Origin: Clostridium aciditolerans
GTDB taxonomy: Bacteria > Bacillota > Clostridia > Clostridiales > Clostridiaceae
Direction of reading: 5' to 3'
Assembly: GCF_016316925.1 (NCBI RefSeq)
Contig: NZ_JAEEGB010000035.1
Coordinates: 167,063 to 199,062 of the forward strand
Length of the DNA stretch: 32,000 bases
Within the stretch, counting starts at the first letter, position 1, and each line of letters begins with the position of its first letter. Position numbers and translations under genes: made by a program. Shown piece after piece: positions 6,988 to 29,626 of the stretch. The notes beneath the pieces were generated by a model, which was given only the letters and a program-made list of their open reading frames with translations, did not search any database and was not told the DNA's origin.

Positions 6988-8073
6988 TTAATCCTCCATT
7001 TTGCAGTCATTTTCTAATTTAAGTTCGTCCTTAGCCAAAGGAAGATTTAACTTAATTTTTATAAGATTGCAAGTCAATCTTACATATGTAGCACTTTTAA
7101 CAATTCTACCTGTTGGGCCAATTACTCTGCCTTGCCAATCATTTAAATTTGATCTGTGCCAATCTATATCTTTAATTTTTGAAAGGATCTCTTTCCAATC
7201 ATTTGGATTATTCTTATATAAATAATTAGCAACAAGTCCTAGTGCTTCAAGAACAACAGCATTAGAACTTATGTAGTCACTTCTGAAAAGGGTTGGACTT
7301 GTATGCTTATTAAATACAAATTGCCATTCTTTCATATTCTCACAAAGTAGATCCCAAAACTCATAAACAAAAGTAGTAGTTTGAGAATCGTTGATATTTA
7401 GCTTGTTAATTAATTTTTTATTTGTTTCGTTTAAACTGCTGAGAGTAAAAAGTTTTGGTGAAAATTTAGATAAAGAAGGATTTTCTTTATCAGTATAATT
7501 TTTCAAGTAAGCATTTTCTTCAAGCAGTCCTTTAGTAAGCATAGCTATTGGATCTCTAGAGTCATATAAAATTCCAATTGATTTTGATACATTAACAGCA
7601 TGCTTATTCAAATCAGCAAAAATTTGCTGACTACGCTTTAAACCTTCATCTATAAATAGAACAACAGAAATTGTTTCATCCTCAAGTTCAGGGGAAGCTT
7701 TTAATGCTTCTTCAATAGCAGCCCGTCGATGTTGGCCATCATTAATAAGTAATCTGCTGTCCATAGATACCCTTAGTACTCCAATTTTTTCATCAAAATC
7801 TTTGTTTATAGGTGTAAAATCAAATTCACCATCTATTGAAGCTGTCACAGATGAAAAAACATAATCATTTGGATTGTTAAGTATATAAGATGCCATTTCA
7901 GGAATTCTAGCTTTATTTAGAATTCTTTGAGCTCTATGCTCAGGTGGCAAATCATCTTCATTAAAAAGAAACAATTTAGATAAAATTGATAATGGACACA
8001 TTATCACAAAAAAATCTCTATTTGCTTGTTTGCCTTTTACAGCTGGAAAAGTGTAATAAAAGTTACTTTTCAT
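6988..8073 (-). CDS. dndB: DndB (DGQHR-domain regulator of phosphorothioation)
   Basis: Contains the diagnostic INDGQHRRAAIEE (DGQHR) motif. It is the first gene of the operon, with RBS AGGAGG 5 nt upstream of the ATG (8077-8082). Confidence 0.85.
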   Translation of the reverse strand: MKSNFYYTFPAVKGKQANRDFFVIMCPLSILSKLFLFNEDDLPPEHRAQRILNKARIPEMASYILNNPNDYVFSSVTASIDGEFDFTPINKDFDEKIGVLRVSMDSRLLINDGQHRRAAIEEALKASPELEDETISVVLFIDEGLKRSQQIFADLNKHAVNVSKSIGILYDSRDPIAMLTKGLLEENAYLKNYTDKENPSLSKFSPKLFTLSSLNETNKKLINKLNINDSQTTTFVYEFWDLLCENMKEWQFVFNKHTSPTLFRSDYISSNAVVLEALGLVANYLYKNNPNDWKEILSKIKDIDWHRSNLNDWQGRVIGPTGRIVKSATYVRLTCNLIKIKLNLPLAKDELKLENDCKMED

Positions 8074-11369: not shown

Positions 11370-13492
11370 TTGAATATTGAAAAGAACCTTATTCTTATAA
11401 AGAATGAAGATAAAACAGAAGAGGTTACATATTGTAAAAGGTCTAATCAAAAGTGTGACATTACTTTTAAAAATAATAAAACTTATACATATAGCAATTA
11501 CAATGTTGTGTGGAGTACCAATTTTATAGAAATTGATACACAAACAGTTATTGCCTACGAAAATAAAATTCCAATATCAGGTATAATTAAGATTATTAAA
11601 TTCCAAGAGCATAATTATATTAGATTAATATTTAAAACTGGATATCATAAGTTATATCATGTATCAGAGATAACTATAGAAAAGAATGCTTTAGAAAATT
11701 CAGCCTCTAAGAATTGCTTTACATATTTAAAGGAGCTTGCAAGTAATATTGATTTTGAAAATGATAATGATTTTATTAGTAAACAGTTTGAAGCTATGAC
11801 TGCCATTAGTCCAACCAGTGTTTTAGCTAACTATTTGAATCCAAAAACAATAAGACATTTAAAAAATAATAAACAAATAATATTTCCTTTTGGATTTAAT
11901 ATAAGTCAAAAAGAAGCTGCAGAAAAAGCTTTGAATAATCAAATTAGCATTATTGAAGGGCCACCGGGAATTGGAAAAACTCAGACCATACTAAACATTA
12001 TTGCAAATGCTATTATAGATAATAAAACAGTAGCTGTTGTTTCAAATAATAATTCTGCTACTTTGAATGTTTTTGAAAAACTTAAGAAATATATACATTA
12101 TATAAAAGATTTAATAAAAGTAAAAACAGAACGATTTTTGATGAAAATGCATTGTGGAAAAAATTTAGTAATTTCATTAACGAATATCCTATAATACTTA
12201 GTACAACTCATTCTTTAAGAAAATGTGCAAGTAGGAATTATTTGTTTGACTATGTTATCATAGATGAATCTTCCCAGATTGATATAGTTACTGGGGCTTT
12301 GGCTTTTTCCTGTGCTAAAAATGTTGTTATTGTAGGAGATTTAAAACAGTTGCCTAATGTAGTTACTAAAGAAAATAAAGATATTAGTAATAGTATTTAT
12401 GATAGATATAAGTTAAATGAAGCCTATAAATATTCAGAGAATAGTCTGCTATCTTCAATAAGCATGCTATATAGTGAGGTACCTAAGACATTACTCAGGG
12501 AGCACTATAGATGTCATCCTAAAATAATAGATTTTTGCAATAAGAAATTTTATGATGATCAACTGATTATTTTAACGGATGAAAGTTCCTGTGATAAACC
12601 TTTAGAAGTGTATAAAACAGTAAAAGGTAATCATGAAAGAAACCACTATAATCAAAGACAAATAGATGTAATATTAAAAGAAATAATTCCAAAATTAAAA
12701 GAAAATAAATCTGTAGGAATAGCGTCACCTTATAGAAATCAGATAAAGGAATTAAAAGATGTTATTAGTAGTGAAGATATTGAAATTGATACAGTACATA
12801 AATATCAAGGAAGGGAAAAAGAAATAATGATCCTTTCAACGGTTTCAAATGAAGCAAATGATTTTATGGATAATGCTAATCTTCTAAATGTAGCCATATC
12901 AAGAGCGGAGAATAAATTAATTATCGTTGTTTCTGACAATGAAGAATTACTGAATAGCAGTAATATTGGAGATTTAATTAGATATATACAATATAACAAC
13001 CTGGAAATCATAAATAGTAGTATATATTCTATATTTGACTTGCTATATAGTTCATATTCAGAACAATTGCTGGAGTTTATTAAAAAGAATAAAAAAGTTT
13101 CTAAGTATAATTCTGAAAATTTAATGAATTCGTTAATAGAAAAAGTATTAGCTTGTGAAGAATTCAAGTCATTAGGTAAGGTTTTACACTACCAACTTAA
13201 TATGCTTATTCGTGATACTTCGAAATTAGATGAAAAAGAATTAAAATATGTAACAAATCCATTAACTCATGCTGATTTTTTTATATTTAGAAAGATAGAC
13301 AAAATGCCTGTTTTAGTGGTAGAGGTAGATGGATATGCCTTTCATTTGAATAATCCAGAGCAATTGGAACGGGATAAGATGAAAGATAGAATTTTAGCGA
13401 AATATAATATACCAATATTAAGATTACCTACTAATGGAAGTGAGGAAGAAAAGAAGCTTAAAGAGAAACTAATTGAGGTATTGAATATTTAA
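11370..13492 (+). pseudogene. Disrupted SF1 (Upf1/DNA2-like) helicase with a C-terminal DUF2726/Vsr-like nuclease domain
   Basis: ORF 11370..12194 carries Walker A GPPGIGKTQT. ORF 12152..13492, in a different frame that is open from 12086, carries motif II VIIDESSQ, REHYRCHP, VHKYQGREKE and the C-terminal VVEVDGYAFH...RDKMKDRIL nuclease-like module. The frame switch lies at about 12086-12110. The I-to-II spacing looks short, so an internal deletion is likely. Confidence 0.7.
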
Positions 13493-13511
13493 CTACAGTA
13501 ATTCCCATATC

Positions 13512-13554
13512 AGTCCCTTCAGTACAAATATAATCTGAAGGGACTTTTATTTTC
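13512..13554 (+). terminator. Intrinsic terminator after the helicase gene
   Basis: Stem AGTCCCTTCAG (13512-13522) / CTGAAGGGACT (13535-13545), followed by TTTTATTTT. Confidence 0.7.
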
Positions 13555-13808
13555 ATTTAGCTATATATAAAAGTTTCTTCACATTAAAAATAATCGATTA
13601 GGAAAGTAAAAAGATATGAACCTTTTTCAGATATTAGGAAAAAGTATTTTAGAGATTCCAGATGAAATAATATGAGATAAACTGAATTGGCAGATAAAAT
13701 AGAAGTATTAAAACAGGTTGTAAATAAAATAGTTAAGGATCAAAAGGCCATATGAACTAGTATTGTTTAGCTACCTAAGTAAAAATATTGTAATGATTTG
13801 TAATATTT

Positions 13809-15002
13809 ATGAATAGTATTATATTGATATCAATAATATTAGAGATGATAAAAATAAATAATAATTTAATTTCTATGGAGCCATATAAAGATATTTTCAT
13901 TAACATACTGACAAGGGATATCGATTTTAAAGATGCAATTTTAGATTTAGTAGACAACTCAATTGATGCTGCTAAGAAAACTAAAAAAACAAACGATTTA
14001 ACAAACTTTGAAATTAAAATAACAATTGATAAAAGCAAATTTGTAATAAATGATAACTGTGGAGGCATTAGTATAGATACTGCTACAAAGTCTGCATTTA
14101 GATTTGGCAATGATAAGACAAGCAGTCATGATGATCAATCAGTAGGAAGATTCGGCATTGGTATGAAAAGAGCTATTTTTAAAATAGGAAATATGATAAC
14201 AGTTGAGGCAGCAACAGAAAAGGAATATTTTAAGGTAATAATTGATGTGCTTGATTGGCAAAAACAGAAAGATTGGGATATTAAGTTCAAGCAGGTAATA
14301 GAGAATAAAAATAAAATGGTTGGGACAACCATTAAAGTAACCAATCTTAAAGAAGATACAACAAGGAAATTTACCCAAGGTACTTTTATAGTAGCTCTTG
14401 AAGAATCAATAAGAGAAAAGCATAGTGATGCCTTAGAGAATGGTATAAGAATTACATTAAATAACTTTGTTATCGATCCATTACCTAAAGAAAAACAGGT
14501 AAAAGTTACTGAACTAAAAATAAAGGAGAAGGGATTTACAGGTTCCATTTCTGTATATAAAGCTGAATGTAATAAAAAACTAGCCGGATGGTATATAAAA
14601 TTTAATAATCGTGTAATTATAAAAGCTGATAAGTCACAGCTAACAGGTTGGGGACTTTCGAAGATAAGAGATAAAATGAAGACGGGGGAATTTGAAGAAA
14701 GGTTTTCTTCTTTTAGAGGATATGTAGACTTAAAGGATACTAAATTTAGAATGTTACCTTTTAATACAACAAAGAATTCAGTTAATACAGACTCCGAGGA
14801 GTATGAGAAAATACTAGATTATATGGTTGAAGCTATGAATAAATCTATGCAGCATTTTCGTGATTTAGGATTAAGATGCATTTCATATAAGAGACCTGTT
14901 GAGCAGGTGACAAAACTTATGAAGTTATTAGATTTTAAATATGCTAAGGACGTTGGGGAGTATACTTACGATCAATATATAAAACACAACAATATTAAAT
15001 AA
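13809..15002 (+). CDS. GHKL (Bergerat-fold, MORC/MutL-like HATPase_c_3-type) ATPase
   Basis: Motif I LDLVDNSIDA, motif II INDNCGGI (DxGxG) and G2 box GRFGIGMKRA. The true start is uncertain (ATG at 13809, 13845 or 13875; none has a strong RBS). Confidence 0.75.
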   Translation: MNSIILISIILEMIKINNNLISMEPYKDIFINILTRDIDFKDAILDLVDNSIDAAKKTKKTNDLTNFEIKITIDKSKFVINDNCGGISIDTATKSAFRFGNDKTSSHDDQSVGRFGIGMKRAIFKIGNMITVEAATEKEYFKVIIDVLDWQKQKDWDIKFKQVIENKNKMVGTTIKVTNLKEDTTRKFTQGTFIVALEESIREKHSDALENGIRITLNNFVIDPLPKEKQVKVTELKIKEKGFTGSISVYKAECNKKLAGWYIKFNNRVIIKADKSQLTGWGLSKIRDKMKTGEFEERFSSFRGYVDLKDTKFRMLPFNTTKNSVNTDSEEYEKILDYMVEAMNKSMQHFRDLGLRCISYKRPVEQVTKLMKLLDFKYAKDVGEYTYDQYIKHNNIK

Positions 15003-15124
15003 GAACAAATGTTTGTGCAATTACTGGTAAAGTAAACCATACTATATCTATAAGTATTGGAGGGATATAGTATGGTTTATTCGTTTGTTGAAAAGAACTC
15101 TATTATGAAACTTTAATAAAAGAA
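14612..15124. repeat. Direct repeat copy 1 (~513 bp): 3' end of the GHKL gene, the intergenic region and the first codons of an Rpn gene
   Basis: Aligns base-for-base with 21087-21597. I count ~20 substitutions in the first ~480 nt. Similarity decays after 15094/21569. Confidence 0.9.
15072..15116 (+). pseudogene. 14-codon stub of an Rpn-family gene (MVYSFVEKNSIMKL*)
   Basis: Same RBS (GGAGGGATATAGT-ATG) and first 8 codons as the intact gene at 21547, then a premature stop. Scattered residual similarity continues to about 15200. Confidence 0.55.
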
Positions 15125-15244
15125 AAAGTCAAAGCTAAGGAATAGATAAAATCTGTAAATGTGTGAGATATTATGATGTTAATTTACATTTTTTAATATT
15201 AAAGTTAATTTTATGGGAGGAAAATAATTTATTTTATCGAATTA

Positions 15245-15274
15245 TATACAAATAACTATAAATTATTTGGAGGT
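15245..15274 (+). repeat. Left copy of the inverted 26-nt leader/RBS repeat (candidate recombination core site)
   Basis: CAAATAACTATAAATTATTTGGAGGT at 15249-15274 ends 6 nt before the ATG at 15281. Internal palindrome CAAATAA-CTATAAA-TTATTTG. The outer arm is TATACAAATAA (15245-15255). Confidence 0.85.
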
Positions 15275-15280
15275 CACTGT

Positions 15281-17731
15281 ATGCTAACTTTAAAACAGCA
15301 TGGAATTTACTCAGAAATAGAAAAAATAATATCAGTTAATAGTAATACTGATTATATTTATTTTGAGGGCCCAACAGGAAGTGGAAAATCAAAAATAATC
15401 CTAGATTTTATTTCAAATGTTTTAAGCCAATTCGAGAATTGGTCTTTTTATTACATAGAAGGTAAAGACCCCTTTGTAGAATCATATGCCACCATTACAC
15501 TTTCGAATTCAGATAAGACTAAGTCAAATAAATATCAGTTATCAAATGTAAATTTTAATTTGGGGTTTAGTATACCTGCAATAATGAGTTTGGGTATTAC
15601 AACTAGTTTTAAAAAGAATAGCATATTTGACGATAAAACAAATTCTGTATTAGTTGAACTAAATAAGCATGAAAATGAGAACATTGTAATAGTAGCAGAT
15701 AGTTTTCAACTATGGGATTCTGCTTCTCAAGAATTATTAAATACTATTATTAATTATCCTAATGTAATAAAAGGCAAAAGAGTGATAATTTTAATTATAG
15801 CTGATGAAGATGATCCTATTATAGAAAAATGTGATTATATTAATAGGTTTAAGAAAAAAAGTCATAATATAAAAATCAAAATGCTTGACAGAGATGAATT
15901 GAAAGAAATTTCAAAGGTTTTAGGCTATACCATTGGTCTGAGTAATGAACTAAAAGATATTATTATGTCGATAACAGGTGGAAATATTAGTTTTATAAAA
16001 ATGTTTCTTGAAGAATATACAGATTCAAAATCAGATAATTTTATATTAAATTATAATAATATAGATATTATGAATTTATTAGATAACCGCATGGAGCAGT
16101 TTGGAGAAAAAAAAGCTGATTTCATGGAGGTTTTGGAAGTATCTTCAATTCCTAAAGGTGCATTTAATTCAACTGAAATACAATATCTTTATAATAAAGA
16201 TGTAGTTGATGTGGAGAATGTTTTAGACGAATCGCAAAAAGCATCTATTTTAAAAGGTGAAATAGAATTTATGTTTTCTAATTATTTAGTTAGAAACTTA
16301 TTTTATAAAAAACTAAACGGAAAAAGTAAAATATTTCATAAAAAGTATGCTGAGTATTTAAAGAAATACAAACCTGAAAATTATATCAGTAGAGCATATC
16401 ATTTGAAATTATCGAATTTAAACGATACTATTGAAATAATTAATTTACTATCAATAGCTTATTGTAGAAGTTTAGAAAACAATAACAATTTCTCTGAATC
16501 AAATTCAATTTTAATGCAAATTGAAAAATTGAAAGATGAATCGTCAAATGATAGAGAAGTAATGAATTTATATGATAATTTTATTAATTTAAAATCTGCA
16601 TACGAAAGTTATTACCAAGAAAAGTATGATGAAGCTAATGATGAATTATTAAAAATTCCAGCAATAGGCCCTTTTCTATTTACAGCAGAAGTAGCCAGAT
16701 TTCATCTTATTGTAAAATCATTACTAGATATGGATACTGAAAATATATATGAAGCAGCTAAGGTTTTAAATGAAAAAATGAATGATTTATATATAGATGA
16801 AAGAGATGAATGGTGTCGATGTGCATTGGTACTCTTTTCTACCTATGCTAATAAATTAAATGATTGTAATTCTAGTAAAGAAGTTTATACTCAATTAGGA
16901 AAATTAATATCTAAATCTTATAATAATAGCAGTCTTCAGTATTTGAAGAATATAATATATAGAAAAGCTTGCATCTTTCAAACACCAGTAGAAGCTGAGA
17001 GGAGTACTTCTGAAAGTATAAAGTACTTTTATGAAAATGGAGATATATATCAATATTATATGTCATGTTGTAATCACTCTGGAAATTTAATTATTTTAGG
17101 TAAGTATGATGAAGCAATATATTCTTTATATGCTTGTCTAAATTCAATTAGAAAATATAAATTTATTAAATTCCCGACACAGCAAAAAATATATAATAAT
17201 CTATATTTGGCCTATTTCTTACGAAATTATCATAGTGATACTATTTCAAAAGAATATATAATTAAAATGAAAAGGAAGTTTGAAAAATTAATAAATGACC
17301 AATATAACGAGAGCAATGCAATCATACATATAAATTTGATTAATATCTGCGCTATTCTAGGAGAATATAATGAATGTTTTATAAAACTCAATACTCTTGA
17401 AAATGATATATTGGATAATAATGATGATGAATTTTACAAATATTATTTGTATAATATAAAGTTTGCACTAAATTCATTAACCCAAAATTGGGACGAAGCA
17501 GCTAAGAATTTAAATGATTTAAATAACTCTTTTCCTAATTATTTTACAAAGATAAAACGAAAAATAAATAACCGTAACAAATCTCTCCAACTTTTACTGG
17601 ACGATAAAATAACTTTATCACCAAAAGAATTGGATAAATGGATATATAAAAATTCAAAAAAGGACGATTGCTCTTGCAACTTTTTCTGTAGGTTATTTCT
17701 TTTTTCAGATTTACAATTTACTTCATTATAA
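15281..17731 (+). CDS. P-loop NTPase with a long TPR-like helical repeat region (STAND/AAA_16-like architecture, no recognisable effector domain)
   Basis: Walker A FEGPTGSGKSKI near the N-terminus and Walker B-like NIVIVADSFQLWD. About 450 aa of helical repeats follow (e.g. AYESYYQEKYDEANDEL, GKYDEAIYSLYACL). Strong RBS GGAGG. Confidence 0.7.
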   Translation: MLTLKQHGIYSEIEKIISVNSNTDYIYFEGPTGSGKSKIILDFISNVLSQFENWSFYYIEGKDPFVESYATITLSNSDKTKSNKYQLSNVNFNLGFSIPAIMSLGITTSFKKNSIFDDKTNSVLVELNKHENENIVIVADSFQLWDSASQELLNTIINYPNVIKGKRVIILIIADEDDPIIEKCDYINRFKKKSHNIKIKMLDRDELKEISKVLGYTIGLSNELKDIIMSITGGNISFIKMFLEEYTDSKSDNFILNYNNIDIMNLLDNRMEQFGEKKADFMEVLEVSSIPKGAFNSTEIQYLYNKDVVDVENVLDESQKASILKGEIEFMFSNYLVRNLFYKKLNGKSKIFHKKYAEYLKKYKPENYISRAYHLKLSNLNDTIEIINLLSIAYCRSLENNNNFSESNSILMQIEKLKDESSNDREVMNLYDNFINLKSAYESYYQEKYDEANDELLKIPAIGPFLFTAEVARFHLIVKSLLDMDTENIYEAAKVLNEKMNDLYIDERDEWCRCALVLFSTYANKLNDCNSSKEVYTQLGKLISKSYNNSSLQYLKNIIYRKACIFQTPVEAERSTSESIKYFYENGDIYQYYMSCCNHSGNLIILGKYDEAIYSLYACLNSIRKYKFIKFPTQQKIYNNLYLAYFLRNYHSDTISKEYIIKMKRKFEKLINDQYNESNAIIHINLINICAILGEYNECFIKLNTLENDILDNNDDEFYKYYLYNIKFALNSLTQNWDEAAKNLNDLNNSFPNYFTKIKRKINNRNKSLQLLLDDKITLSPKELDKWIYKNSKKDDCSCNFFCRLFLFSDLQFTSL

Positions 17732-18814
17732 TGAATTCAATAGATTCTTATATCTTAAGTAAGTCATACCGATTATGGTTGAGTAAATTTCATTATACGG
17801 AATACATAAATTTTCAAATGCAAAAGCAAAAGAACTATGTTTTGTTGTGTATGGAGTTGAAGCAATATCAATTAAATAGGGGTTGCCAAAATTATCAATT
17901 CTAAAGTCAATTCTACCATAATTTTGTAATCCAATAATTTTACCTATTTTTGCTGATAATTCTTGAATAAATAAACATTGTTTTTTGTTTATTACCTCGG
18001 ATAAGTTATAAAAATTATAATCATCCTCAAATGAACGTTCATAAGTTAAAATTTCTGTGCTTAGATTAGGATTATTGTTAATTGATATACCTACAGGAGA
18101 CATAGTATGTACTTTATCAGAGATTATAAGTGGAACTTCGCATTCAAATCCAGATATAAATTCTTGTACAAACAGAGCTTCTTTTCTATTAATAAATATA
18201 TTTTCTAAAAAATCTAAAGAATTTTTATTGAAAGTATTAATTGAGTTATTGTCCATACCTATACTTGCGGATTCAGACATAGACTTTACAATAATTTGTG
18301 TTCCTATAGTAGGTTTAGAATCATTAAGCCATTTATTTTGGCCAATATATATCCAACTTTTAGGTATAGGTATACCATGCGCTTCTAAATATTTGGAATA
18401 TGTATATTTAGCTCTGCATAATGAAATTACAAATGCATTTGAGCCAGTATATGGTACTGTTATGAGGTCACAAAATGATGGAATGAGAGATTTTTTTCCT
18501 GGCTTTTTACCGTTTCTTGCTAAATTATAAACAATCTTGTTTTCAATGTTAAATTTTTTGTTTAATATATCAGACATAAAATTTATTTCATTAAAAAAAG
18601 CATGTACATAAAATTCTGAAGTCTGGATACCATCTAAAATTTCTGAATATTCTTCATCAGTAAAAAACTCATTTTCATCTGAATATTGTATTTCCATATT
18701 TTCAATAATCTTTGTTTTTGAACGAGAATTACTAATTAGAGCAATTTCAACTTCTTGATTAATGTTTGAAGTTGCTTTAAGTATTCTGTCAATAGTATTT
18801 TTTATTTCATTCAT
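17726..18814 (-). CDS. ATP-grasp enzyme of the D-alanine--D-alanine ligase family
   Basis: PYTGSNAFVISLCRAKYTYSKYLEAHGIPIP, IVKSMSESASIGM and GRIDFRIDNFGNPYLIDIASTPY match the Ddl-type ATP-grasp layout. I place the start at ATG 18814 (MNEIKN; GGAGG 6 nt upstream) rather than the track's 18859. The stop overlaps the convergent 816-aa gene by 6 nt. Confidence 0.75.
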   Translation of the reverse strand: MNEIKNTIDRILKATSNINQEVEIALISNSRSKTKIIENMEIQYSDENEFFTDEEYSEILDGIQTSEFYVHAFFNEINFMSDILNKKFNIENKIVYNLARNGKKPGKKSLIPSFCDLITVPYTGSNAFVISLCRAKYTYSKYLEAHGIPIPKSWIYIGQNKWLNDSKPTIGTQIIVKSMSESASIGMDNNSINTFNKNSLDFLENIFINRKEALFVQEFISGFECEVPLIISDKVHTMSPVGISINNNPNLSTEILTYERSFEDDYNFYNLSEVINKKQCLFIQELSAKIGKIIGLQNYGRIDFRIDNFGNPYLIDIASTPYTTKHSSFAFAFENLCIPYNEIYSTIIGMTYLRYKNLLNSL

Positions 18815-18820
18815 AATAAA

Positions 18821-18850
18821 ACCTCCAAATAATTTATAGTTATTTGGAGG
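18821..18850 (-). repeat. Right copy of the inverted 26-nt repeat, extended to an 11-7-11 palindrome
   Basis: 18821-18846 is the exact reverse complement of 15249-15274. The arms are CCTCCAAATAA (18822-18832) and TTATTTGGAGG (18840-18850), with spacer TTTATAG. It lies 15 nt from the recombinase stop codon (18866-18868). Confidence 0.85.
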
Positions 18851-18865
18851 TATTAGCATAAAAAA

Positions 18866-19804
18866 TTAAATCTTTAAAAGATTCCTAGCATTAAATTTTA
18901 ATAAAACCTGTTTCTTCCTTTCAGTAGATACCTCTGTATATATCTGAGTAGTAGTAATACTAGAATGGCCTAGTATTTCCTGTACAGATCTAATATCCGC
19001 CCCATTATTTAAAAGTTGAGTTGCGAAAGTATGTCTAAGATAATGAGGAGTAGATTTTGTATCAATTCCTGCTAGCTGTCTGTATTTTTCATATATATTT
19101 TCAATTGAATATATAGAAAGCTTGTCACCATATTTATTGATAAAGAGAGCATCGCATTTTGGGTTTAAATTTTCTCTTTCTATAATCCAAGTATTGAGGA
19201 TATTTATAACATCGGTACTGGATATAAATAGAAGTCTATCTTTTCTTCCTTTACCGTGAATCAAAAGGGTTTGTTCTTCTAAGGTTATATCATTTAATTC
19301 AATGTTAACAAGTTCACCTATCCTTATACCTACACAATACAATAATTCAATTATTGCTGCATTTCTTATGCTAATAGTCTTTCTGAATTCTGTCTGAATA
19401 TCTTTTAATTCTTCAATTGGTGATTTTAAAAGTTTTATTATATCTTGAGAGGGTAAAGTTTTAGGAAGTTTTTTTGAAGTTTTAAAGGAAATTCTCATAT
19501 TATCAAAAGGTGACTTACTTATAATATAATTATTGACTAAATATTTAAAAAAGGATTTTAAGGAAACATATTTTCTTTTTATTGATGTATCTTTCATTTC
19601 TTTGATATTTTGTAGCCAAAAAATATATGAGTTTATGGTGCTAATATTTATAGTGTTAATTGAGTTTTCTTTCAGCCACCTCAAAAAGCTTGATAAATCC
19701 GAATAGTAAGCTTTAGTGCTTTTTTCAGTGAGATTTCTTTCTATTTTAAGAGTACTTATATAATTATTAATGTTATCACTCATAATTTTTACATTACATT
19801 CCAT
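18866..19804 (-). CDS. Tyrosine recombinase, XerC/XerD-like
   Basis: The full catalytic set is present: GIRIGELVNI (Arg), HGKGRKDR (Lys), HYLRHTFAT (His-x-x-Arg) and LGHSSITTTQIYT (His...Tyr). An N-terminal SAM-like domain is also present (LTEKSTKAYYSDLSSFLRWL). The start is placed at ATG 19804 (GGAGGA 5 nt upstream); the track's 19828 is a TTG. Confidence 0.9.
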   Translation of the reverse strand: MECNVKIMSDNINNYISTLKIERNLTEKSTKAYYSDLSSFLRWLKENSINTINISTINSYIFWLQNIKEMKDTSIKRKYVSLKSFFKYLVNNYIISKSPFDNMRISFKTSKKLPKTLPSQDIIKLLKSPIEELKDIQTEFRKTISIRNAAIIELLYCVGIRIGELVNIELNDITLEEQTLLIHGKGRKDRLLFISSTDVINILNTWIIERENLNPKCDALFINKYGDKLSIYSIENIYEKYRQLAGIDTKSTPHYLRHTFATQLLNNGADIRSVQEILGHSSITTTQIYTEVSTERKKQVLLKFNARNLLKI

Positions 19805-19854
19805 AGTCTTCCTCCAATTCTTCTGCAATAATATTATAAATAAATTACAGAATT

Positions 19855-20343
19855 ATGTCGATATGTGAAAGACAAATAGATAAAAAAAGCTTAAATAATG
19901 AAGAGCTTACTAATGAGGAAATATTGGGTCTTACGTTTATACCATTAATGAAAGGAAAATTAACTAGAACGGAAAGAACCATAAAAAGTATAGAATTAGC
20001 AAATAAGATAGAAACAGGAGAAAAAAAGATAAAGTGTCTTACAATGCTATATGCACTTTTAGAGAAGTTTGGAGATGAAGAAAGTAAGAAAAAATTCAAG
20101 GAGGTATTTAATATGACTGAGATAGGTAAAATGATATTGGAAGATGGAATGGCAAAAGGGATGGAAAAAGGAAGAGCTGAAGGAAAAGTAGAGCTTTTGC
20201 TTAAGCAATTAACTAAAAAATTCAAAAAAATACCGGAAGAATATAAAAAAAAGATAAAAGAATTGCCAGATGAAACACTTGAAATAATAGGGTTAGAGAT
20301 ATTTGATATAGAAGATATTAAAGAGCTGGAGAAATATTTTTAA
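19855..20343 (+). pseudogene. C-terminal fragment of an Rpn-family (YhgA-like PD-(D/E)XK) recombination-promoting nuclease/putative transposase
   Basis: Only the C-terminal half is present (LTMLYALLEKF...ILEDGMAKGMEKGRAEGKVELLLKQL, the GxEKGxxxG tail typical of Rpn proteins). The N-terminal nuclease core is absent. Confidence 0.6.
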
Positions 20344-20525
20344 TTTATAAATTTGGAGTAGAAGCTATTGTCATATAACAACTGGTGGTGCTCCAATAGA
20401 TATAGTTAAAGTTGATAGTTTAGCATTAATAAATAAAGAAAATTGAAATGGTAAAGACACCTGGAATCAAATTCTTGAGGAAAGCTTTGTATATTAATTA
20501 TGAGAATAAGGTAGGAGGTACACAA

Positions 20526-20705
20526 ATGAAATGGGAGGATGTAAGAAAGCAATATCCTAATATTTTTGTAAAGTTTGAGATAGTTGAATCTCATATTGAA
20601 GAGGATAAGGAAATAGTAGACGAAGTTGCTTTTATTAAGGCTATTAAAGACGGAAAAGAAGCTATGGTGGAACATTTAAAATGTAAAAATAGTCAGTATG
20701 TATAT
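20526..20705 (+). pseudogene. 3'-truncated small ORF (MKWEDVRKQYPN...) running into the antisense of the SRP RNA
   Basis: Strong RBS AGGTAGGAGG before ATG 20526. From about 20703 the reading frame is simply the antisense of ffs, so the listed 140-aa product (20448..20870) is not credible as a whole. Confidence 0.45.
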
Positions 20706-20948
20706 CGTGCACCCACTGTTGACCTAGTTAGCTCAAACCAGGTTGTTCCACGGCACTTAAAAGTGATCACTTACCGCTGCTTCCTTCCGGATCTGACGGA
20801 GTTCATGAGTTTCTGCTGCATGGGACCCAGTTCTCAATACCACTTTGACCAGGCAGGCCCAACAGACTAAAGTCTATAGGGGGAATTCAATCCTGCTGTA
20901 GCGGATTGCAGGTTACAGGGCACCGCTGGCTCCCCATCTAGCACGAAT
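20703..20948 (-). ncRNA. ffs: Signal recognition particle RNA, long Bacillus/Clostridium type (scRNA/4.5S homologue with Alu domain)
   Basis: The minus strand reads GTCAGATCCGGAAGGAAGCAGCGGTAAG (conserved domain IV) and GCGGTGCCCTGTAACCTGCAATCCGCTACAGCAGG (Alu domain, near-identical to B. subtilis scRNA as I recall it). The 5' TCGTGC pairs with the 3' GCACGA. A GC-rich island in AT-rich DNA. Ends are accurate to +/-5 nt. Confidence 0.88.
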
Positions 20949-20985
20949 TCTATCTTTAAGTTAGTCATCCTCTTGCTGTGAAAAT

Positions 20986-21014
20986 ATAATAACATAATTT
21001 AAATCCTTATTCAA
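20986..21014 (-). promoter_or_regulatory. Sigma-A-type promoter for ffs
   Basis: The minus strand has TTGAAT (21014-21009), a 17-nt spacer and TATTAT (20991-20986), about 40 nt upstream of the mature 5' end. This is consistent with a processed precursor. Confidence 0.5.
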
Positions 21015-21086
21015 GAATATATAAATAGTAATTATTACCTAATATTAAGATTACTTATTTAGGATGGATTAATAATTGAACTAACA

Positions 21087-21597
21087 TGTAATTATAAAAG
21101 CTGATAAGTCACAGCTAACAGGTTGGGGGCTTTCGAAGATAAGAGATAAAATGAAGACTGAGGAATTTGAGGAAAGGTTCTCTTCTTTTAGAGGATATGT
21201 AGACTTAAAGGATACTAAATCTAGAATGTTACCTTTTAATACAACAAAGAATTCAGTTAACACAGACTCCGAGGAGTATGAGAAAATACTAGATTATATG
21301 GTTGAGGCTATGAATAAATCTATGCAGCATTTTCGTGATTTAGGATTAAGATGCATTTCATATAAGAGACCTGTAGAGCAAGTGACAAAACTTATGAAGT
21401 TATTAGATTTAAAATATGCTAAGGATGTTGGTGAGTATACTTATGATCAATATATAAAAAACAACAATATCAAATAAGAACAAATGTTTGTATAATTACT
21501 GGTAAAGTAAACCATACTATATCTATAAGTATTGGAGGGATATAGTATGATTTATTCGTGTGTTGAAAAGGATTATTTTATAGCTTTAATAAAAGAA
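21087..21597. repeat. Direct repeat copy 2 (~511 bp)
   Basis: See copy 1 (14612-15124). The offset between copies is 6475 bp. Confidence 0.9.
21088..21477 (+). pseudogene. Orphan 3' fragment (about 129 codons) of a GHKL ATPase gene
   Basis: The translation is about 95% identical to the C-terminus of the 13809..15002 product. A stop lies immediately upstream (21082-21084), and there is no N-terminal ATPase domain. Confidence 0.85.
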
Positions 21598-22641
21598 GAA
21601 AACAATAATTATGGAGGGAAGAAGAGAAAAAATCATATTCAGATGGATAAAATTTTAAAGCGTTTATTTACACTAAAAAACACTATACCAATTATAGATT
21701 TTCTTAACGCAGCCTATAATGACGATATATCTTATGAAGCTAAACTATATTATGCAGATAAGGAAATTAATAATTTTGAAAAGAAAAGTAGCCGCTACAT
21801 AAGTTATTATGCTGATATGTATATAAAGGTTATAGATAAGAAAAACGTTTATGAATATGAAATAGAATTTCAAACAATTTATGAAAATAGTATGGTTATA
21901 AGAATGTTTAGATATGGTTTTGAGAGAGCAGTAAATATCTCATACTACAATAGTATAAAGGAAGGTAGATTAAGAATAAAATTACCAGAACCATATCTTA
22001 TAGTGTTAGAAGAAGATAAGAATGTACCTAACAGTATATACTTAGAAATAGAGATTCCAAAGCAAGATACAATTACATATAGTTGTAAAGTATTGAAGTA
22101 TTTTAGCTATGATATTGATAAACTATTAAAGGAAAATATGTATCTACTGCTGCCACTGCAGGTATTTAGATTAAGAAAGAAAATGTATCAAATAAGTATT
22201 AGTAATCTACTCTTTGAAGAAAAGAAAAGTAAAATGATCGACGTGTATAATGAATTGAAAATAGTTATAGAAGATACTTTAAAAGCTATAGATTTATCGT
22301 ATAATGGTAATAAGATAACTTTAGAAGATTATGATGAAATGACATCTACTATAGAAAACATTAACTCATATTTTTTAGGCATGTATGGAAAATATACAGA
22401 TTTTGATGAGGAGGTTAGGGAAATGGTGAAGAGCTTTTATGATCCTAAGGTTGAAGAAAGAGGAATAGAAAAAGGAATAGAGAGAGGAAAGATACAAGGT
22501 AAGATTGAGGAAAAAATTGAAACAGCAACAGAGATGATTAAAGATGGAGAGCCTATAGAAAAAATCAAAAAGTATACAAAGCTAGATGAAAATAAGATTT
22601 TGGAATTAATAAAACAAATAGGAACTGAAAAAGTTCAATGA
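21547..22641 (+). CDS. Rpn-family recombination-promoting nuclease/putative transposase (PD-(D/E)XK)
   Basis: YADMYIKV...YEYEIEFQT matches the D...ExQ nuclease core. The C-terminal tail is ERGIEKGIERGKIQGKIEEKIE. The start is placed at ATG 21547 (GGAGGG 7 nt upstream) rather than 21532. Confidence 0.75.
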   Translation: MIYSCVEKDYFIALIKEENNNYGGKKRKNHIQMDKILKRLFTLKNTIPIIDFLNAAYNDDISYEAKLYYADKEINNFEKKSSRYISYYADMYIKVIDKKNVYEYEIEFQTIYENSMVIRMFRYGFERAVNISYYNSIKEGRLRIKLPEPYLIVLEEDKNVPNSIYLEIEIPKQDTITYSCKVLKYFSYDIDKLLKENMYLLLPLQVFRLRKKMYQISISNLLFEEKKSKMIDVYNELKIVIEDTLKAIDLSYNGNKITLEDYDEMTSTIENINSYFLGMYGKYTDFDEEVREMVKSFYDPKVEERGIEKGIERGKIQGKIEEKIETATEMIKDGEPIEKIKKYTKLDENKILELIKQIGTEKVQ

Positions 22642-22677
22642 CAAGAAAAAAGATATGTAGACTAAGGGGGAAATAAA

Positions 22678-23007
22678 ATGGATGATACAGAAATGACAAT
22701 AGATGAGATAAGGAAGAAAATTGTTTCATTTTCAAAAGAGCGTGGCTGGGACAAAGGAGAAAGTGCTAAAGATTTAGTTATGGCTTTATCAATTGAAGCC
22801 TCTGAACTTATGGAAATTTTTCAGTGGTTACATTCAGATAAAGCCGATAGCGTAAAAGATAATGCTAATGAATTCCAACATTTAAAAGAAGAAATTGCAG
22901 ATGTGTTTTGGTATTTGATAAGAATTTGTGAACATTTTCAAATTGATTTAACCAAGGCTGTTGAAGATAAAACTGTGAAAAATGCAATAAAATATCCCAT
23001 TGATTAA
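22678..23007 (+). CDS. MazG-like nucleotide pyrophosphohydrolase (dCTPase/DCTPP1-like small form)
   Basis: LVMALSIEASELMEIFQW and EEIADVFWYLIRICEHF match the paired EExx(E/D) helices of all-alpha NTP pyrophosphatases. Ends in NAIKYP. Confidence 0.8.
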   Translation: MDDTEMTIDEIRKKIVSFSKERGWDKGESAKDLVMALSIEASELMEIFQWLHSDKADSVKDNANEFQHLKEEIADVFWYLIRICEHFQIDLTKAVEDKTVKNAIKYPID

Positions 23008-23023
23008 GAAGGTGTGAAAAGGT

Positions 23024-23515
23024 ATGAAAAAAATTTTTATGCAGAAAATTTGTTTTGTTTTTCTTTCCTTGTTTATTACAATAAGTTTATTAGGATGTTC
23101 ATCAACAAATAAAAATATTGTGAATGAAAAACAAAATATAAAAACAGATTCTACAAAAAATGAAGCTGTAAAAAATAAAAAAATAATTAACGATTTTCAA
23201 GGAGTAGCTGATTATATTCATAAAAATGGACGCCTTCCTGATAACTTTATAACCAAAGAACAGGCAGCAAAGCTTGGATGGACCCCGGGTAAAGACCTTG
23301 ACCAAGTGGCACCTGGTAAAAGCATAGGTGGAGATATTTTTACGAATGCAGAAAAATCATTACCAGATGCTCCTAAAAGAGTTTGGCGTGAGTGTGATAT
23401 CAATTATAATGGAGGGAAAAGAGGAGCTGACAGAATACTTTATTCTAATGATGGATTGATTTATTCAACTTCAGACCATTATAAGACATTCAAGCTCTTA
23501 TATAATGGAAAATAA
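23024..23515 (+). CDS. Barnase-family secreted ribonuclease (lipoprotein signal)
   Basis: VADYIHKNGRLPDNFITKEQAAKLGW...APGKSIGGDIFTN...WRECDINY...RGADRILYSNDGLIYSTSDHYKTF aligns almost motif-for-motif with Bacillus barnase. The N-terminus has the lipobox LLGC. Confidence 0.9.
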   Translation: MKKIFMQKICFVFLSLFITISLLGCSSTNKNIVNEKQNIKTDSTKNEAVKNKKIINDFQGVADYIHKNGRLPDNFITKEQAAKLGWTPGKDLDQVAPGKSIGGDIFTNAEKSLPDAPKRVWRECDINYNGGKRGADRILYSNDGLIYSTSDHYKTFKLLYNGK

Positions 23516-23528
23516 TTTTTAAAATGAG

Positions 23529-23813
23529 GTGGATACTTTGAATAAAGTAATTTTGGAAGGAAGTAAATTTACAGATAAAGAGACTTTACATGAAAATTTG
23601 AAGAGAGAGCTAAAGCTTCCTGATTATTATGGAAAAAACTTAGATGCGCTCTGGGATTGCTTAACTACAGATGTAAAACTACCGATTACAATTGAATGGC
23701 TAGATTTCCAAATTAGTAGGAAGCTTTTGGGGGACTATGCAGAAAGCACATTAGGAGTCTTTCGTGATGCTGAAAAGTATACAGAAGGAAGATTGCAAAT
23801 ACATATGAAGTGA
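23529..23813 (+). CDS. Barstar (barnase inhibitor)
   Basis: [23 protein letters not shown]...ITIEW matches barstar ([20 protein letters not shown]). The start could be GTG 23529 or TTG 23538. Confidence 0.9.
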   Translation: [94 protein letters not shown]

Positions 23814-23822
23814 AACTTGAAT

Positions 23823-23862
23823 CAGATGGGAGTATTAGGGCGGGTAGTCATCGGATAAAATA
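23823..23862 (+). repeat. ~40-nt GC-rich motif, copy A (core TTAGGGCGGGTAGTCATCGGATAAA at 23835-23859)
   Basis: 21/25 identical in the core to 26516-26540, with extra similarity upstream (CAGA...TGGG). Both copies sit just upstream of a terminator hairpin. Confidence 0.6.
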
Positions 23863-23868
23863 GGTACA

Positions 23869-23900
23869 AAGCCAATGCTTAACAACTAAGCATTGGCTTG
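23869..23900. terminator. Bidirectional terminator hairpin between barstar and the RNase H gene
   Basis: Stem GCCAATGCTTA (23871-23881) / TAAGCATTGGC (23887-23897), loop ACAAC, with A/T runs on both sides. Confidence 0.7.
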
Positions 23901-23933
23901 AAATTTCTAACGTAAAATGCCTAAGAAGTTTTT

Positions 23934-24725
23934 TCAATTCCCAGCGGCATCTCTTGCATACATATCACAAAGAGAGTTTTCAAAATGGTTGGAGTGTCCC
24001 TTTACCCATTGAAATTCAATATATTTCCCGTTACAGACGGTATCAAAGAGAAGCCAGTTCTCAATATTTTTAACAGACTCGCCATTTATAGTTTTAAAGT
24101 CATTTAATTTCCAGCAAGGAATCCATTCTGTTAGGCCTTTTCTTACATATTGGCTGTCAGTTACTATTCTTATTTTTTCGATATTCTTTAGTAATTGAAT
24201 AGCTTTTATAACTGCTATAAGTTCAGCTTGGCTGCTGCCTGTTTCCTGAACCTTTTCTGTGTATAGCTTATAATTTCCTTCTAAATCCTCTATTATAAAA
24301 GCAAAACCACCATACTTTTTATTTTCAAAATAGCAAGCATCTGAAAATATCTTATAAATTTTTTCTTCGCCTTTATCTTCATCTATAACATAACTATCAT
24401 TATTATTGTTTCGTTTGTCTAAAACTACTATTTTACTCCTATCATTAAAAGCTGCTACATCTTTATGATATCTTAAAATAAGTTTGACATTGAAACCCAC
24501 ATAATAAGTATCTATACGCTTATTATGAAGCATTTTTCTAAGTTGATATTCGTTAGCCTTAAGACAATCAGTTAAGTTACTATTATGAATAAAATTCAAC
24601 TCTTTTTTATAAGGGTTAAATTCTATCAATGTATCCTCTATATCATTACTTATCTTGATTTTATAATTATTATTTAGGGCATCTATTATTTCCATTTTAA
24701 ATAGCAGCATCTTCATAAGAGGCAC
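23934..24725 (-). CDS. RNase HI-domain protein with an unknown ~130-aa N-terminal domain
   Basis: The C-terminal half has the complete RNase H1 catalytic set: FSDAC (Asp), SSQAELIAV (Glu), VTDSQYVRKG (Asp) and WVKGHSNHFENSLCDMYAR (His, Asp). RBS AAAGGAG. The N-terminal domain does not look like the usual hybrid-binding domain. Confidence 0.8.
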   Translation of the reverse strand: MPLMKMLLFKMEIIDALNNNYKIKISNDIEDTLIEFNPYKKELNFIHNSNLTDCLKANEYQLRKMLHNKRIDTYYVGFNVKLILRYHKDVAAFNDRSKIVVLDKRNNNNDSYVIDEDKGEEKIYKIFSDACYFENKKYGGFAFIIEDLEGNYKLYTEKVQETGSSQAELIAVIKAIQLLKNIEKIRIVTDSQYVRKGLTEWIPCWKLNDFKTINGESVKNIENWLLFDTVCNGKYIEFQWVKGHSNHFENSLCDMYARDAAGN

Positions 24726-24817
24726 TCCTTTGGATATCTCGTGTACATTCCTGCACGCCGATTGATTTTACTTATTAGAAAATTCAACTTCAATAAAGCA
24801 GAGAGGTTTATTAAGTA

Positions 24818-27352: not shown

Positions 27353-29626
27353 TTATTCTATCATAAAATCCACATCTATGTTATTCTCCTTCAGATTGTC
27401 CACAACTAGAACTGCAGCTCTAAAGGTCTTTTTGGTACCATTAAAAGTATTAGCAACATGAAAACAGGTAGGCTTGTTATAAAACTTACAGTAGCTCATC
27501 TTGCTTATCTGCTTTTTAAAGCTTCCAAGGGTCAGAACCTCTATGTCCAGATTGTGGTCTTTGCAGTACTTTAGAAATCTATCATAGAAAACAGTGTAGT
27601 TTAATCTAAGTACCTTGTCACCATCAGAATCCTTTGTGCAGTCATAGTCAGCACCCCGTACTAGATTGCCATTTGCAGCCATTCTATTGAAGGCTTCAAG
27701 GCTGATATCCACCACACTTTTACTTTTAGTATTATCTTCTAAAAGTTCTTTTATTACAGAAGCTTTAAGTGCAGTTTCTATATCTTTAGAGGAGTAACCA
27801 GAAGCTTCTTTAAAGTTAAGTCCTAAATTTTCAAATATTTCTAAAAGAAGAGCTAATCCTAAAAGAGCATTTGTTATAGATTGTTTTATTCTCTCATTAT
27901 GTATATTGTCCCCAGAGAATTTCTTGAAAAACATATCATAAGTAGCTTTTAGATTTTCTTCACTCATTTTTAATCCTCCCATCAATAAGCTGTTTCCAAG
28001 TTTGGATAATAACAGGCTGTTTTCTTTAAGATTAGTGAAGTGATTTTTAGTATCTTTGTTTAGGTTAGAGGTAGATAAAAATATTTTAAGACTTCTTTCA
28101 ATATTAGCGGTTTCTGTAATACCCATTTCACCGCAGAGGATTACAGAAGAACGGGGTATGAATTCAATATTTTTACCAAGGTTTTGAGTTCCCTTGATAG
28201 TTTTGTGTGCATCATAAGAGTTTCTCATTATATTTGAAATGAGATTAACTCTGTAAGTTCCAATCTTCTTGGGCTTATATTCATCAATAATCAAAGGAAG
28301 AAAATTGCTGCTGCTTGCAAGCTTGGTAAAGGCAAAGTTGGTGCAGGTGCTGGCATCTAGAATGTTTCCTCTATATCCAAGAAGAGGAGCTGCTATATTC
28401 TCTAGAGTCTGGCTCTTTCCACTGCCGCTTTGACCTTCTATTAAAAGATGGTTGTATTTTATTCCAATATGTTCAAGCTTACCCTTTAGGAATAAGCCGC
28501 AAAGATATGGAATTAATGTAGCAGTTACAGATAAATCATTAAAGTTAAAAAGAGAAGGAGCTAGAATTTGTAATTCTTCTTTTGTAATACAGGAAAATTC
28601 TAATAAATTACTGTGAGCTTCCCTGAAATCTTCAAGAACTATGGCGGAAGAATTATGATAAAGCTCCTCACTTACAGCACTATCGTTGTCAACAAAGAAC
28701 CACTTTTTATTTAGTTTATGAAAGCCTTCATAGGATACACCATTTATAATGTTAGTTGTATCTGAGGATATCTTTGCTTTTATATGCTGCAGGTCTGAAT
28801 TTGAACCATTGAAAACTAAGGCAAAACTATTAACTGCTTTTTTAAAGGACAGTGCATCATTAAAATCCTGTGGAGTAAAAGTCCTTTCTACAACATGATT
28901 GCTGTTACACAGTTTTAGTTCACATTTTATCAGCTCTTCATAAAGAGATATAATTATGTATTTAGCTTCTATTATAAAGTTTGTAATAAAGATTTTTCTG
29001 CCTTTGTAGTTCTTGTAATAGCAGCCATCTTCTACATGAATAGGAGAGTTGTAATTTGTATTTTTTTCAATTAAATCTGCTCCTGTTATTAGATTCTCTA
29101 TAAGTTCTGGTGTTACACCATTATTAATCCACTCTGCAATACTCATGTTTTCCTTTAAATCAGGCAAATTAATAATTCCAATGCTTTTGCAGCAGCTTTT
29201 AAAACTGTTATATACAGTTTTGGAATATTGTTTGCTGTGATTACTATTATTCGGGAAGATTATAAGGTTAGCTCTTTTTATTTGCTGAGCATAGTTTTTG
29301 CTGAATTTATTAAAACTTTTAAGGCCACCAAAGGTTGTAGTTGCAGTAAAGCCCATATTCTTTAGTGCATCTGCAGACTTCTCATCTTCCACATATATAA
29401 TAGTTTCATTGTTTTTTATACTTTTTATTACAGATGGGAGCATATAAAGAACTGGCTCTATGCTTTTAAAATCATTGATCCATTCGCCTTTCTTATCTTT
29501 GCTGTAGCATCGAAAGCTTTTCTTTAGGTTTCCGTCTTGTAACCACTTACAGCTTTCGATTTTGTAAACTACAATGCCATCCTCATTTCTGTAATAGTAT
29601 TGTGATATATTTTTGTTATTTACCAT
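27353..29626 (-). CDS. Mobile-element primase-helicase-like protein (Toprim-like N-terminal region plus P-loop NTPase, DUF927/D5-like layout)
   Basis: The N-terminal IIYVEDEKSADALKNMGFTATTTFGG has the Toprim Glu, but the expected DxD position reads IIFPNNSNHS. Walker A EGQSGSGKSQT and Walker B LPLIIDEYKP. Confidence 0.7.
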   Translation of the reverse strand: MVNNKNISQYYYRNEDGIVVYKIESCKWLQDGNLKKSFRCYSKDKKGEWINDFKSIEPVLYMLPSVIKSIKNNETIIYVEDEKSADALKNMGFTATTTFGGLKSFNKFSKNYAQQIKRANLIIFPNNSNHSKQYSKTVYNSFKSCCKSIGIINLPDLKENMSIAEWINNGVTPELIENLITGADLIEKNTNYNSPIHVEDGCYYKNYKGRKIFITNFIIEAKYIIISLYEELIKCELKLCNSNHVVERTFTPQDFNDALSFKKAVNSFALVFNGSNSDLQHIKAKISSDTTNIINGVSYEGFHKLNKKWFFVDNDSAVSEELYHNSSAIVLEDFREAHSNLLEFSCITKEELQILAPSLFNFNDLSVTATLIPYLCGLFLKGKLEHIGIKYNHLLIEGQSGSGKSQTLENIAAPLLGYRGNILDASTCTNFAFTKLASSSNFLPLIIDEYKPKKIGTYRVNLISNIMRNSYDAHKTIKGTQNLGKNIEFIPRSSVILCGEMGITETANIERSLKIFLSTSNLNKDTKNHFTNLKENSLLLSKLGNSLLMGGLKMSEENLKATYDMFFKKFSGDNIHNERIKQSITNALLGLALLLEIFENLGLNFKEASGYSSKDIETALKASVIKELLEDNTKSKSVVDISLEAFNRMAANGNLVRGADYDCTKDSDGDKVLRLNYTVFYDRFLKYCKDHNLDIEVLTLGSFKKQISKMSYCKFYNKPTCFHVANTFNGTKKTFRAAVLVVDNLKENNIDVDFMIE

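Follow-up and report, generated by a model that had tools for sequence, protein, structure and literature searches.

A stretch of 32,000 nucleotides from Clostridium aciditolerans (RefSeq assembly GCF_016316925.1, contig NZ_JAEEGB010000035.1, positions 167,063 to 199,062 of the forward strand; G000:C45:167063-199062 in our labels, where G000 is the genome concerned and C65, C72 and C75 are other contigs of it) is called the window here, and positions given without a label refer to it. Within it lie a gene for a GHKL ATPase and a gene for an Rpn-like protein, which are separated by a mosaic block of DNA containing, among other things, a match to the RNA of the signal recognition particle (SRP RNA, gene ffs), and this block is bracketed by two direct repeats. 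Copy 1 of the repeat consists of the 3' end of the intact GHKL gene followed by a 14-codon stub of an Rpn gene, and copy 2 of an orphan GHKL 3' fragment followed by the 5' end of the intact Rpn-like gene. Both repeats and their content had been described in a first-pass annotation made from the sequence alone, and the same boundaries and the same content were obtained here when both regions and their flanking sequence were aligned with MAFFT and the sites counted anew.

A repeat finder applied to positions 13000-23000 gave one family of direct repeats, whose 300-nt core is 96% identical and whose spacing is 6,475 nt. The two copies are identical at 486 of 511 positions (95.1%, that is, 4.9% divergence) and differ in addition by one 2-nt indel; the similarity pointed out earlier is real, although the figure of about 20 substitutions that went with it was a slight undercount, 25 being counted here. 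By part, the GHKL 3' end has 375/391 identical positions, the intergenic region 69/71 and the start of the Rpn-like gene 42/49, and the longest exact stretch common to both copies is 68 nt. The boundaries of the repeats are sharp, because in shuffle tests the flanks beyond each boundary gave local alignment scores no higher than those of shuffled sequence.

Twelve genomes of the genus were compared, and the GHKL-Rpn region is present in two of them, Clostridium sp. OS1-26 (G010), which is complete in a single contig, and G008. The former is a close relative, since it is 96% identical to the window genome over recR-ybaB-dnaX. Positions 12093-15127 of the window align to positions 13919-16948 of the G010 locus at 94.8%, and positions 21062-24774 align to 16409-20099 at 94.3%; the two window segments overlap by ~540 nt on one unbroken stretch of G010, of which 16409-16948 matches both copies. 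The genes there follow one another directly in the order GHKL (397 aa), Rpn-like, MazG, barnase and RNase H, the last on the other strand; the barstar of G010 falls under the 100-aa cut-off of the open reading frame (ORF) listing and lies inside the continuous alignment match. In G008, according to a four-way alignment, the intact GHKL gene runs straight into the Rpn-like gene, which is degraded further downstream. The uninterrupted GHKL-Rpn arrangement that had been expected in related genomes is present in both, with an intact GHKL gene and as a single junction matching both copies. Because this junction is uninterrupted in G010 and G008, positions 15125-21086 plus one repeat copy are an insertion in the lineage of the window genome, and every other genome of the genus compared lacks the block at the GHKL-Rpn site as well. 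Moreover, both junctions of the block recur, 100% identical to the window and in the integrated form only, in Logan contigs of three sequencing runs (spanning 15045-20796, 15045-19067 and 20975-21879), and therefore the block is not a misassembly of one assembly.

When copy 1, copy 2, G010 and G008 are placed in one four-way alignment, copy 1 has 12 private sites and copy 2 has 3. Copy 2 is nearer to G010 than copy 1 is (95.3% versus 92.2%), agreeing with G010 at 20 sites where copy 1 differs, against 4 sites of the opposite kind. Of the coding differences between the copies, 12 are synonymous and 4 non-synonymous, where a ratio of roughly 1:3 would be neutral (binomial P = 4e-5), and the branch of copy 1 carries 6-10 synonymous changes, or about 0.07-0.11 per neutral (synonymous) site. 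The orphan GHKL fragment has kept its frame open over 130 codons, with 2 synonymous and 0 non-synonymous private changes; an unconstrained orphan that had diverged in place would be expected to carry about 35-55 changes, against the 3-4 observed. Since the orphan is nearly unchanged, most of the divergence arose in working genes of separate lineages that were joined recently, and since it shows no decay, its truncation is recent relative to the split between the window genome and G010. To judge from these substitution patterns, the copies are two diverged alleles and not a fresh duplication. With an empty site in two relatives and allelic copies in the window, the earlier proposal that an ancestral GHKL-Rpn junction was split by a homology-driven insertion has held up.

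Table 1. Features of the repeat-bracketed region (strand: +, -, or. for none assigned).
Feature	Position	Strand	Remarks
Intact GHKL (MORC/HATPase_c_3-type) ATPase gene, 397 aa	13809-15002	+	PF13589, E 2.8e-17
Direct repeat copy 1	14612-15124	+	GHKL 3' end (last 130 codons), intergenic region, first Rpn-like codons
Rpn-like stub	15072-15116	+	ATG at 15072, 14 codons, then a stop made by the 2-nt indel
Mosaic block, 5,962 bp	15125-21086	.	Absent at the homologous site in G010 and G008
Unmatched left edge	15125-15190	.	No match found
Three-gene module, 4.67 kb	15191-19870	.	STAND-like ATPase, ATP-grasp, Xer-type recombinase
Inverted-repeat core, arm 1, AAATAACTATAAATTATTTGGAGGT	15250-15274	+	Contains the STAND ribosome-binding site
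STAND-like P-loop ATPase, 816 aa	15281-17731	+	PF01637, E 7e-10
D-Ala-D-Ala-ligase-like (Ddl-like) ATP-grasp protein, 362 aa	17726-18814	-	PF07478, E 4e-17
Inverted-repeat core, arm 2	18821-18845	-	Between the recombinase stop and the ATP-grasp start codon
XerC/D-like tyrosine recombinase	18866-19828	-	PF00589, E 1.5e-42
C-terminal fragment of a second Rpn-family gene (DUF4351)	19893-20343	+	PF14261, E 1.3e-15
Conserved element of ~57 nt	20352-20410	.	82-95% conserved in many clostridial genera of the family
Small ORF, cut at about codon 60 of ~80	20526-20705	+	Abuts the 3' end of the SRP RNA copy
ffs2 remnant with promoter-like region	20697-21041	.	Alignment to ffs2 copies
Accessory SRP RNA paralogue (ffs2 type)	20705-20946	-	RF01854, 162 bits
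Unmatched right edge	21042-21086	.	No match found
Direct repeat copy 2	21087-21597	+	Orphan GHKL 3' fragment, intergenic region, start of the intact Rpn-like gene
Orphan GHKL 3' fragment	21087-21477	+	130 codons, in frame, without the 5' part
Intact Rpn-like gene, 364 aa	21547-22641	+	ATG at 21547; divergent Rpn/YhgA-like member

The first-pass annotation described the ffs gene in the block as one that is normally single-copy and essential and supposed that its loss would be selected against, so that the accessory genes would be locked in place. The SRP RNA match itself is genuine, its score lying above the RF01854 gathering threshold of 60 bits, but the window genome contains three RF01854 matches. 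The canonical ffs lies on another contig (C65:15123-15388, 222 bits) in the order tadA-like deaminase, tRNAs, ffs, dnaX, ybaB, recR, and every relative has one SRP RNA copy of this conserved-context kind with ~215-222 bits. Next to the second copy (C72:105964-106228, 206 bits), and 13 nt downstream of it, lies a gene for 6S RNA. In the genus the number of copies per genome ranges from 1 to 4, complete genomes with two included. Nominal contamination is 5.75% for the window assembly and 7-9% for complete genomes of the genus; since the complete genomes also show extra copies, and higher values, contamination does not explain the multiple SRP RNA genes. The copy in the block is the lowest of the 42 RF01854 matches in the 30 genomes scored. 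It is 84-92% identical to the ffs2 copies of G003, G004, G005, G007 and G009, four of which have a 6S gene above the Rfam threshold after ffs2, and only 83% identical to the C72 copy of its own genome. Both of its ends are whole, but helix 5 has lost 24 nt from its 3' strand, which leaves the 5' strand unpaired; the unit ends ~8 nt past the 3' end of ffs, with no 6S gene and no terminator. A promoter-like site at 21014-20986 (TTGAAT-17-TATTAT, with an extended -10 motif) is conserved among the ffs2 copies in the alignment. On this comparison the SRP RNA gene of the block is a truncated, internally deleted accessory paralogue and not the essential ffs, and consequently the block is not protected from loss by it: with three copies in the genome, the one in the block being a decayed paralogue, the idea of a lock is refuted by the criterion that the first-pass annotation had itself named, a second ffs copy elsewhere in the genome. 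It is a decidedly improbable further reading that the block's copy, with its promoter-like site and its deletion in helix 5, is expressed and acts as a variant or decoy SRP RNA.

Accessory SRP RNA genes occur throughout this Clostridium group as 0-3 extra copies per genome, which have their own promoter and typically a 6S gene within ~13 nt. Such an ffs-6S unit is exemplified by G000:C72:105964-106433 (L002) and is found also at L024, L029, L030 and L031 and in other relatives. The unit has sharp ends and varied neighbourhoods: in G003 and G007 it adjoins RNase H, in G004 it precedes an rRNA operon, and in G000 and G010 its neighbours are an SNF2 helicase on one side and a two-component system on the other. 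Nothing relevant came out of a literature search for an ffs-6S tandem, or for a duplicated or mobile ffs-6S cassette, in Clostridium. That a genome has a single SRP RNA gene is not a safe assumption in this group.

Every piece of the block is single-copy in the window genome, and the pieces map to scattered places in relatives, so that the block is an older patchwork and not a single element. The largest piece, the 4.67-kb module, is found with the same ends and at 85-88% nucleotide identity in C. beijerinckii CP014331 and in metagenome contigs (the module loci are L062 9912-14593 and L065 8565-13247), and its neighbours elsewhere are quite different defence genes, without ffs.

The reading we favour, to which we give about an even chance, is that the arrangement is a recombination scar, left by a Campbell-type insertion of a circle through the homologous GHKL-Rpn segment. 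The setting is a hypervariable defence island of a Clostridium species, with an ancestral gene order, kept in the two relatives, of helicase, GHKL ATPase, Rpn-like, MazG, barnase/barstar and RNase H. Foreign DNA would have arrived with its own ~5% diverged allele of the 511-bp segment and with ~6 kb of unrelated cargo, and the circular molecule that we infer, made up of the 511 bp and the cargo, would have undergone a single crossover with the resident segment. As the homologous segment straddles two neighbouring genes, taking in the end of the first and the beginning of the second, the GHKL and the Rpn-like genes would both have come out intact, and the orphan GHKL 3' fragment and the 14-codon Rpn stub would be the leftovers of the crossover. 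The cargo would already have been a patchwork, composed of the STAND/ATP-grasp/Xer module, half an Rpn gene, a short element, a truncated ORF and a decayed SRP RNA. The density of changes private to the window genome, which is twofold higher in copy 1 (20/511 nt) than in the GHKL gene just upstream (17/912 nt), gives a modest signal which suggests that copy 1 is the incoming allele.

Several observations weigh against this account. If copy 1 came in, the crossover must have fallen in the initial ~42 of the 511 nt, which has an a priori chance of about 8%. Identity to G010 along the island is patchy, ranging from 80 to 100% per 250 nt, so that the excess divergence of copy 1 is only moderately significant. 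Furthermore, copies 1 and 2 agree at 8 sites against both G010 and G008, and the donor would therefore have been a close relative and not a distant one; none of the GHKL homologues searched has the private variants of copy 1, the closest being that of G010, and in the collections searched this GHKL variant is confined to the window genome, G010 and G008. A metagenome scan with the GHKL protein returned distant relatives only (33-48% identity).

The class of event is a textbook one, and only the present instance is new. In Campbell-type insertion-duplication, for example of a non-replicating plasmid through a cloned chromosomal fragment, the insert likewise comes to be flanked by direct repeats which correspond to one segment at the empty site, both genes stay intact with one truncated copy each, and the copies may be different alleles, as is seen here; an event of this type can be reversed by recombination between the repeats. 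The present case differs in being a natural event between ~5% diverged partners, with a defence-island patchwork and not a replicon as its cargo, and in that the circle is postulated. Excision of the block by recombination between the repeats would be possible in principle. It is a decidedly improbable extension of the same idea that the 511-bp homology and the cargo form a homology-addressed cassette, released as a circle by recombination between the repeats; if so, the circle could re-insert by a single crossover in any strain with the GHKL-Rpn pair, disrupting neither gene, and neighbouring nucleases of the Rpn family could supply the breaks for its insertion. On the favoured reading the locus would be a well-documented natural example of defence-island remodelling, in which recombination between diverged alleles of neighbouring genes adds cargo and breaks neither gene. 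Its general importance is small, and its value is mainly corrective, in that the notion of a lock by an essential RNA fails.

Other routes to the same layout have to be considered. The most serious of them, possible but rather unlikely in our judgement, is that a linear fragment was joined at one homologous end, its other end being joined illegitimately. Homology-facilitated illegitimate recombination of this kind, as reportedly described by de Vries and Wackernagel (2002), combines one homologous anchor with one illegitimate join. In the polarity that would be preferred, the incoming DNA was the right segment, from GHKL codon 269 through Rpn, MazG, barnase and barstar, with its anchor in the right flank, while the block and copy 1 were already resident. 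This would agree with the G010-like character of copy 2 (95.3%) and of the right flank (94-100%) and with the left end of copy 2, which falls at an arbitrary point within a gene as a fragment end would, and a crossover in the narrow 42-nt interval would not be needed. In addition, the ffs2 unit adjoins the same RNase H in G007 and G003, so the ffs copy of the block could be native to the place; the RNase H of the window stands 3 kb to the right. On the other hand, no remnant of the ffs2-RNase H spacer is found around the segment from copy 2 to barstar, the junction at 21086/21087 shows no detectable microhomology, the resemblance to G010 is just as close in the left flank, and the divergence of copy 1 above that of the upstream GHKL sequence is left unexplained; if the anchor lay on the left, the sequence upstream of 14612 should carry donor markers, but none is seen there. 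The known process resembles the locus in having foreign DNA beside a homologous anchor with one junction at an arbitrary point within a gene, but its usual outcome is the replacement or deletion of recipient DNA and not a duplication of 511 bp. Improbable, by comparison, is a duplicated structure that was ancestral, with separate losses of the block in G010 and in G008 through recombination between the repeats. Such recombination is feasible over 511 bp, and a crossover close to the left end would yield one copy resembling copy 2, such as G010 has; yet this needs two independent losses instead of one gain, the orphan is undecayed, and the block stands at this site in no other genome of the genus. 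Quite improbable, too, is an in-situ tandem duplication of the GHKL-Rpn junction, with the cargo inserted later and the copies diverging slowly in place. It would produce an equal final layout, and the 8 sites shared against G010 and G008 are in its favour, but an orphan of that age should carry the changes expected above, whereas the observed one is almost unchanged with its frame intact, and the pieces of the cargo are absent elsewhere in the genome.

The presence of a tyrosine recombinase ~0.9 kb away from the SRP RNA 3' end brings to mind site-specific integration of an island at an RNA gene, as with the tRNA and tmRNA islands of tyrosine integrases, which also combine a stable-RNA gene and a tyrosine recombinase in an accessory block with direct repeats. 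We consider this very unlikely here. The flanking repeats are 511 bp of protein-coding DNA and not a short attachment (att) site derived from an RNA gene, there is no second 3' end of ffs in the window, and no att-like repeats of the recombinase core were found at the boundaries of the block. The recombinase does not stand at a boundary but in its own module, which is found elsewhere without ffs and whose conserved sites are internal inverted repeats, and the RNA gene, whole at both ends save for the internal deletion, is a decayed extra and not a target. Because neither att repeats nor a boundary integrase were found when looked for, the block is not regarded as an integrase-mediated island at an RNA gene. 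An assembly artefact, in which two strains or paralogous loci were joined into a chimera, is barely credible. The assembly is in 115 contigs with the nominal contamination given above, but identical Logan contigs from the three runs span both junctions, and copies that differ every ~20 nt pose no difficulty for assembly. Contamination values are the same or higher in genomes of the genus that are complete in a single contig, so that the figure for the window assembly reflects paralogy. The insertion of a circle by a single crossover remains the reading we prefer.

As for the pieces of the block, only 6 homologues of the STAND-like ATPase were found, and a scan of genome contigs with peptides of this protein found nothing. 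PADLOC assigned nothing to the ATP-grasp and recombinase genes and gave one marginal match for the STAND-like ATPase, with no system. The ATP-grasp gene starts at the ATG after the repeat core, and an equal 362-aa gene is called in the homologous loci. The recombinase reaches 253 bits on TIGR02224, under the equivalog cut-off of 335. The Rpn-family fragment to the right of the module lacks the N-terminal half and is 82-86% identical to the 3' half of ~300-aa genes in G010, G006, G007 and G003; it is weakly similar to the 364-aa Rpn-like gene. The possibility that this fragment and the stub in copy 1 are halves of one broken gene was considered and rejected, as the stub matches the 364-aa type only, namely copy 2 and a paralogue on contig C75 (81%), and the C-terminal fragment is of the different ~300-aa type. 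The short element that follows has hairpin potential (TTGGAGTA...TGCTCCAA), is often present elsewhere in two copies or at contig ends and occurs here once; it has no match in Rfam and may be the end of a mobile element. Homologues of the small ORF in L061 and L065 have 79-81 aa, and nucleotide homology stops at 20705.

The Xer-like recombinase always adjoins a segment with a perfectly conserved inverted core, (A/T)AATAACTATAAATTATTTGGAGGT. This core is invariant in five genomes of three genera, the surrounding DNA being 12-24% diverged, and it holds the ribosome-binding sites of both convergent cargo genes. Loci with recombinase and core were found on contigs C7, C47 and C25 of G199 (L042, L052 and L044) and on C27 and C91 of G076 (L043 and L045). 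The cargo varies: STAND and ATP-grasp genes are present here and in C. beijerinckii, and TPR-S after caspase-like and TIR genes in G199. The G199 segment is a separate contig of 2,358 bp whose inverted ends, 39 nt long, are identical, and the core is a point at which contigs are interrupted. The arrangement is probably an invertible gene switch. The module resembles invertons, shufflons and hsdS switches with Xer-like recombinases in that a recombinase stands beside a segment with conserved inverted repeats, and these repeats contain the translation start regions of two convergent genes. It differs from them in that all five assembled copies are in one orientation and that STAND/ATP-grasp is no known phase-variable pair.

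Concerning the genes at the repeats, the GHKL orthologue of Clostridium sp. OS1-26 is 95% identical, and exact-sequence look-ups gave no record for either the GHKL protein or the 364-aa Rpn-like protein. The label "Rpn" given to the latter in the first-pass annotation is sustained as regards family homology, though not at the cut-off of a family model, and its support is indirect: a Pfam search gave zero matches even at E = 5, and on TIGR01784 the protein scored 30.8 bits against a cut-off of 52.1, over the C-terminal 53 residues only, but its homologues (E 1e-36 to 1e-44 over 77-96% of the query) carry PF04754, PF14261 or PF27070 and bear names such as RpnC/YadD or PD-(D/E)XK transposase. Because these full-length homologues belong to recognised Rpn families, "Rpn-like" is an acceptable label for a divergent member. 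The gene has an 88% identical paralogue on contig C75 (G000:C75:3410-4571). Many Rpn-like paralogues of the genus share a left boundary at ~21472, directly after the GHKL stop codon (21472-21546 in the window). From these alignments the Rpn-like gene with a leader of ~75 nt looks like a multi-copy unit, and its adjacency to GHKL looks secondary.

By its gene content the window as a whole is a defence and mobile island of composite make-up, and the G010 locus lacks its left part. On the left, within 1620-8073, the minus strand carries a complete dndA-E (DNA phosphorothioation) cluster; on the right (27353-31405) there are a D5/primase-like gene and an integrase of 453 aa that has an HTH domain. 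Just upstream of the GHKL gene, an SF1 helicase (AAA_11/AAA_12 with a DUF2726 tail; 11370-13492), whose best PADLOC matches are MkoA/MkoC, is split into two overlapping ORFs. G010 has ~2.25 kb of extra DNA at the equivalent of 12093, and its helicase is likewise in pieces; since the gene is broken in both genomes, the helicase partner of the GHKL ATPase is probably inactive in both. Finally, the spacer between barstar and RNase H (23820-23933) contains a short GC-rich repeat with 62 blastn matches genome-wide, and the same sequence also comes after the 6S gene in relatives.

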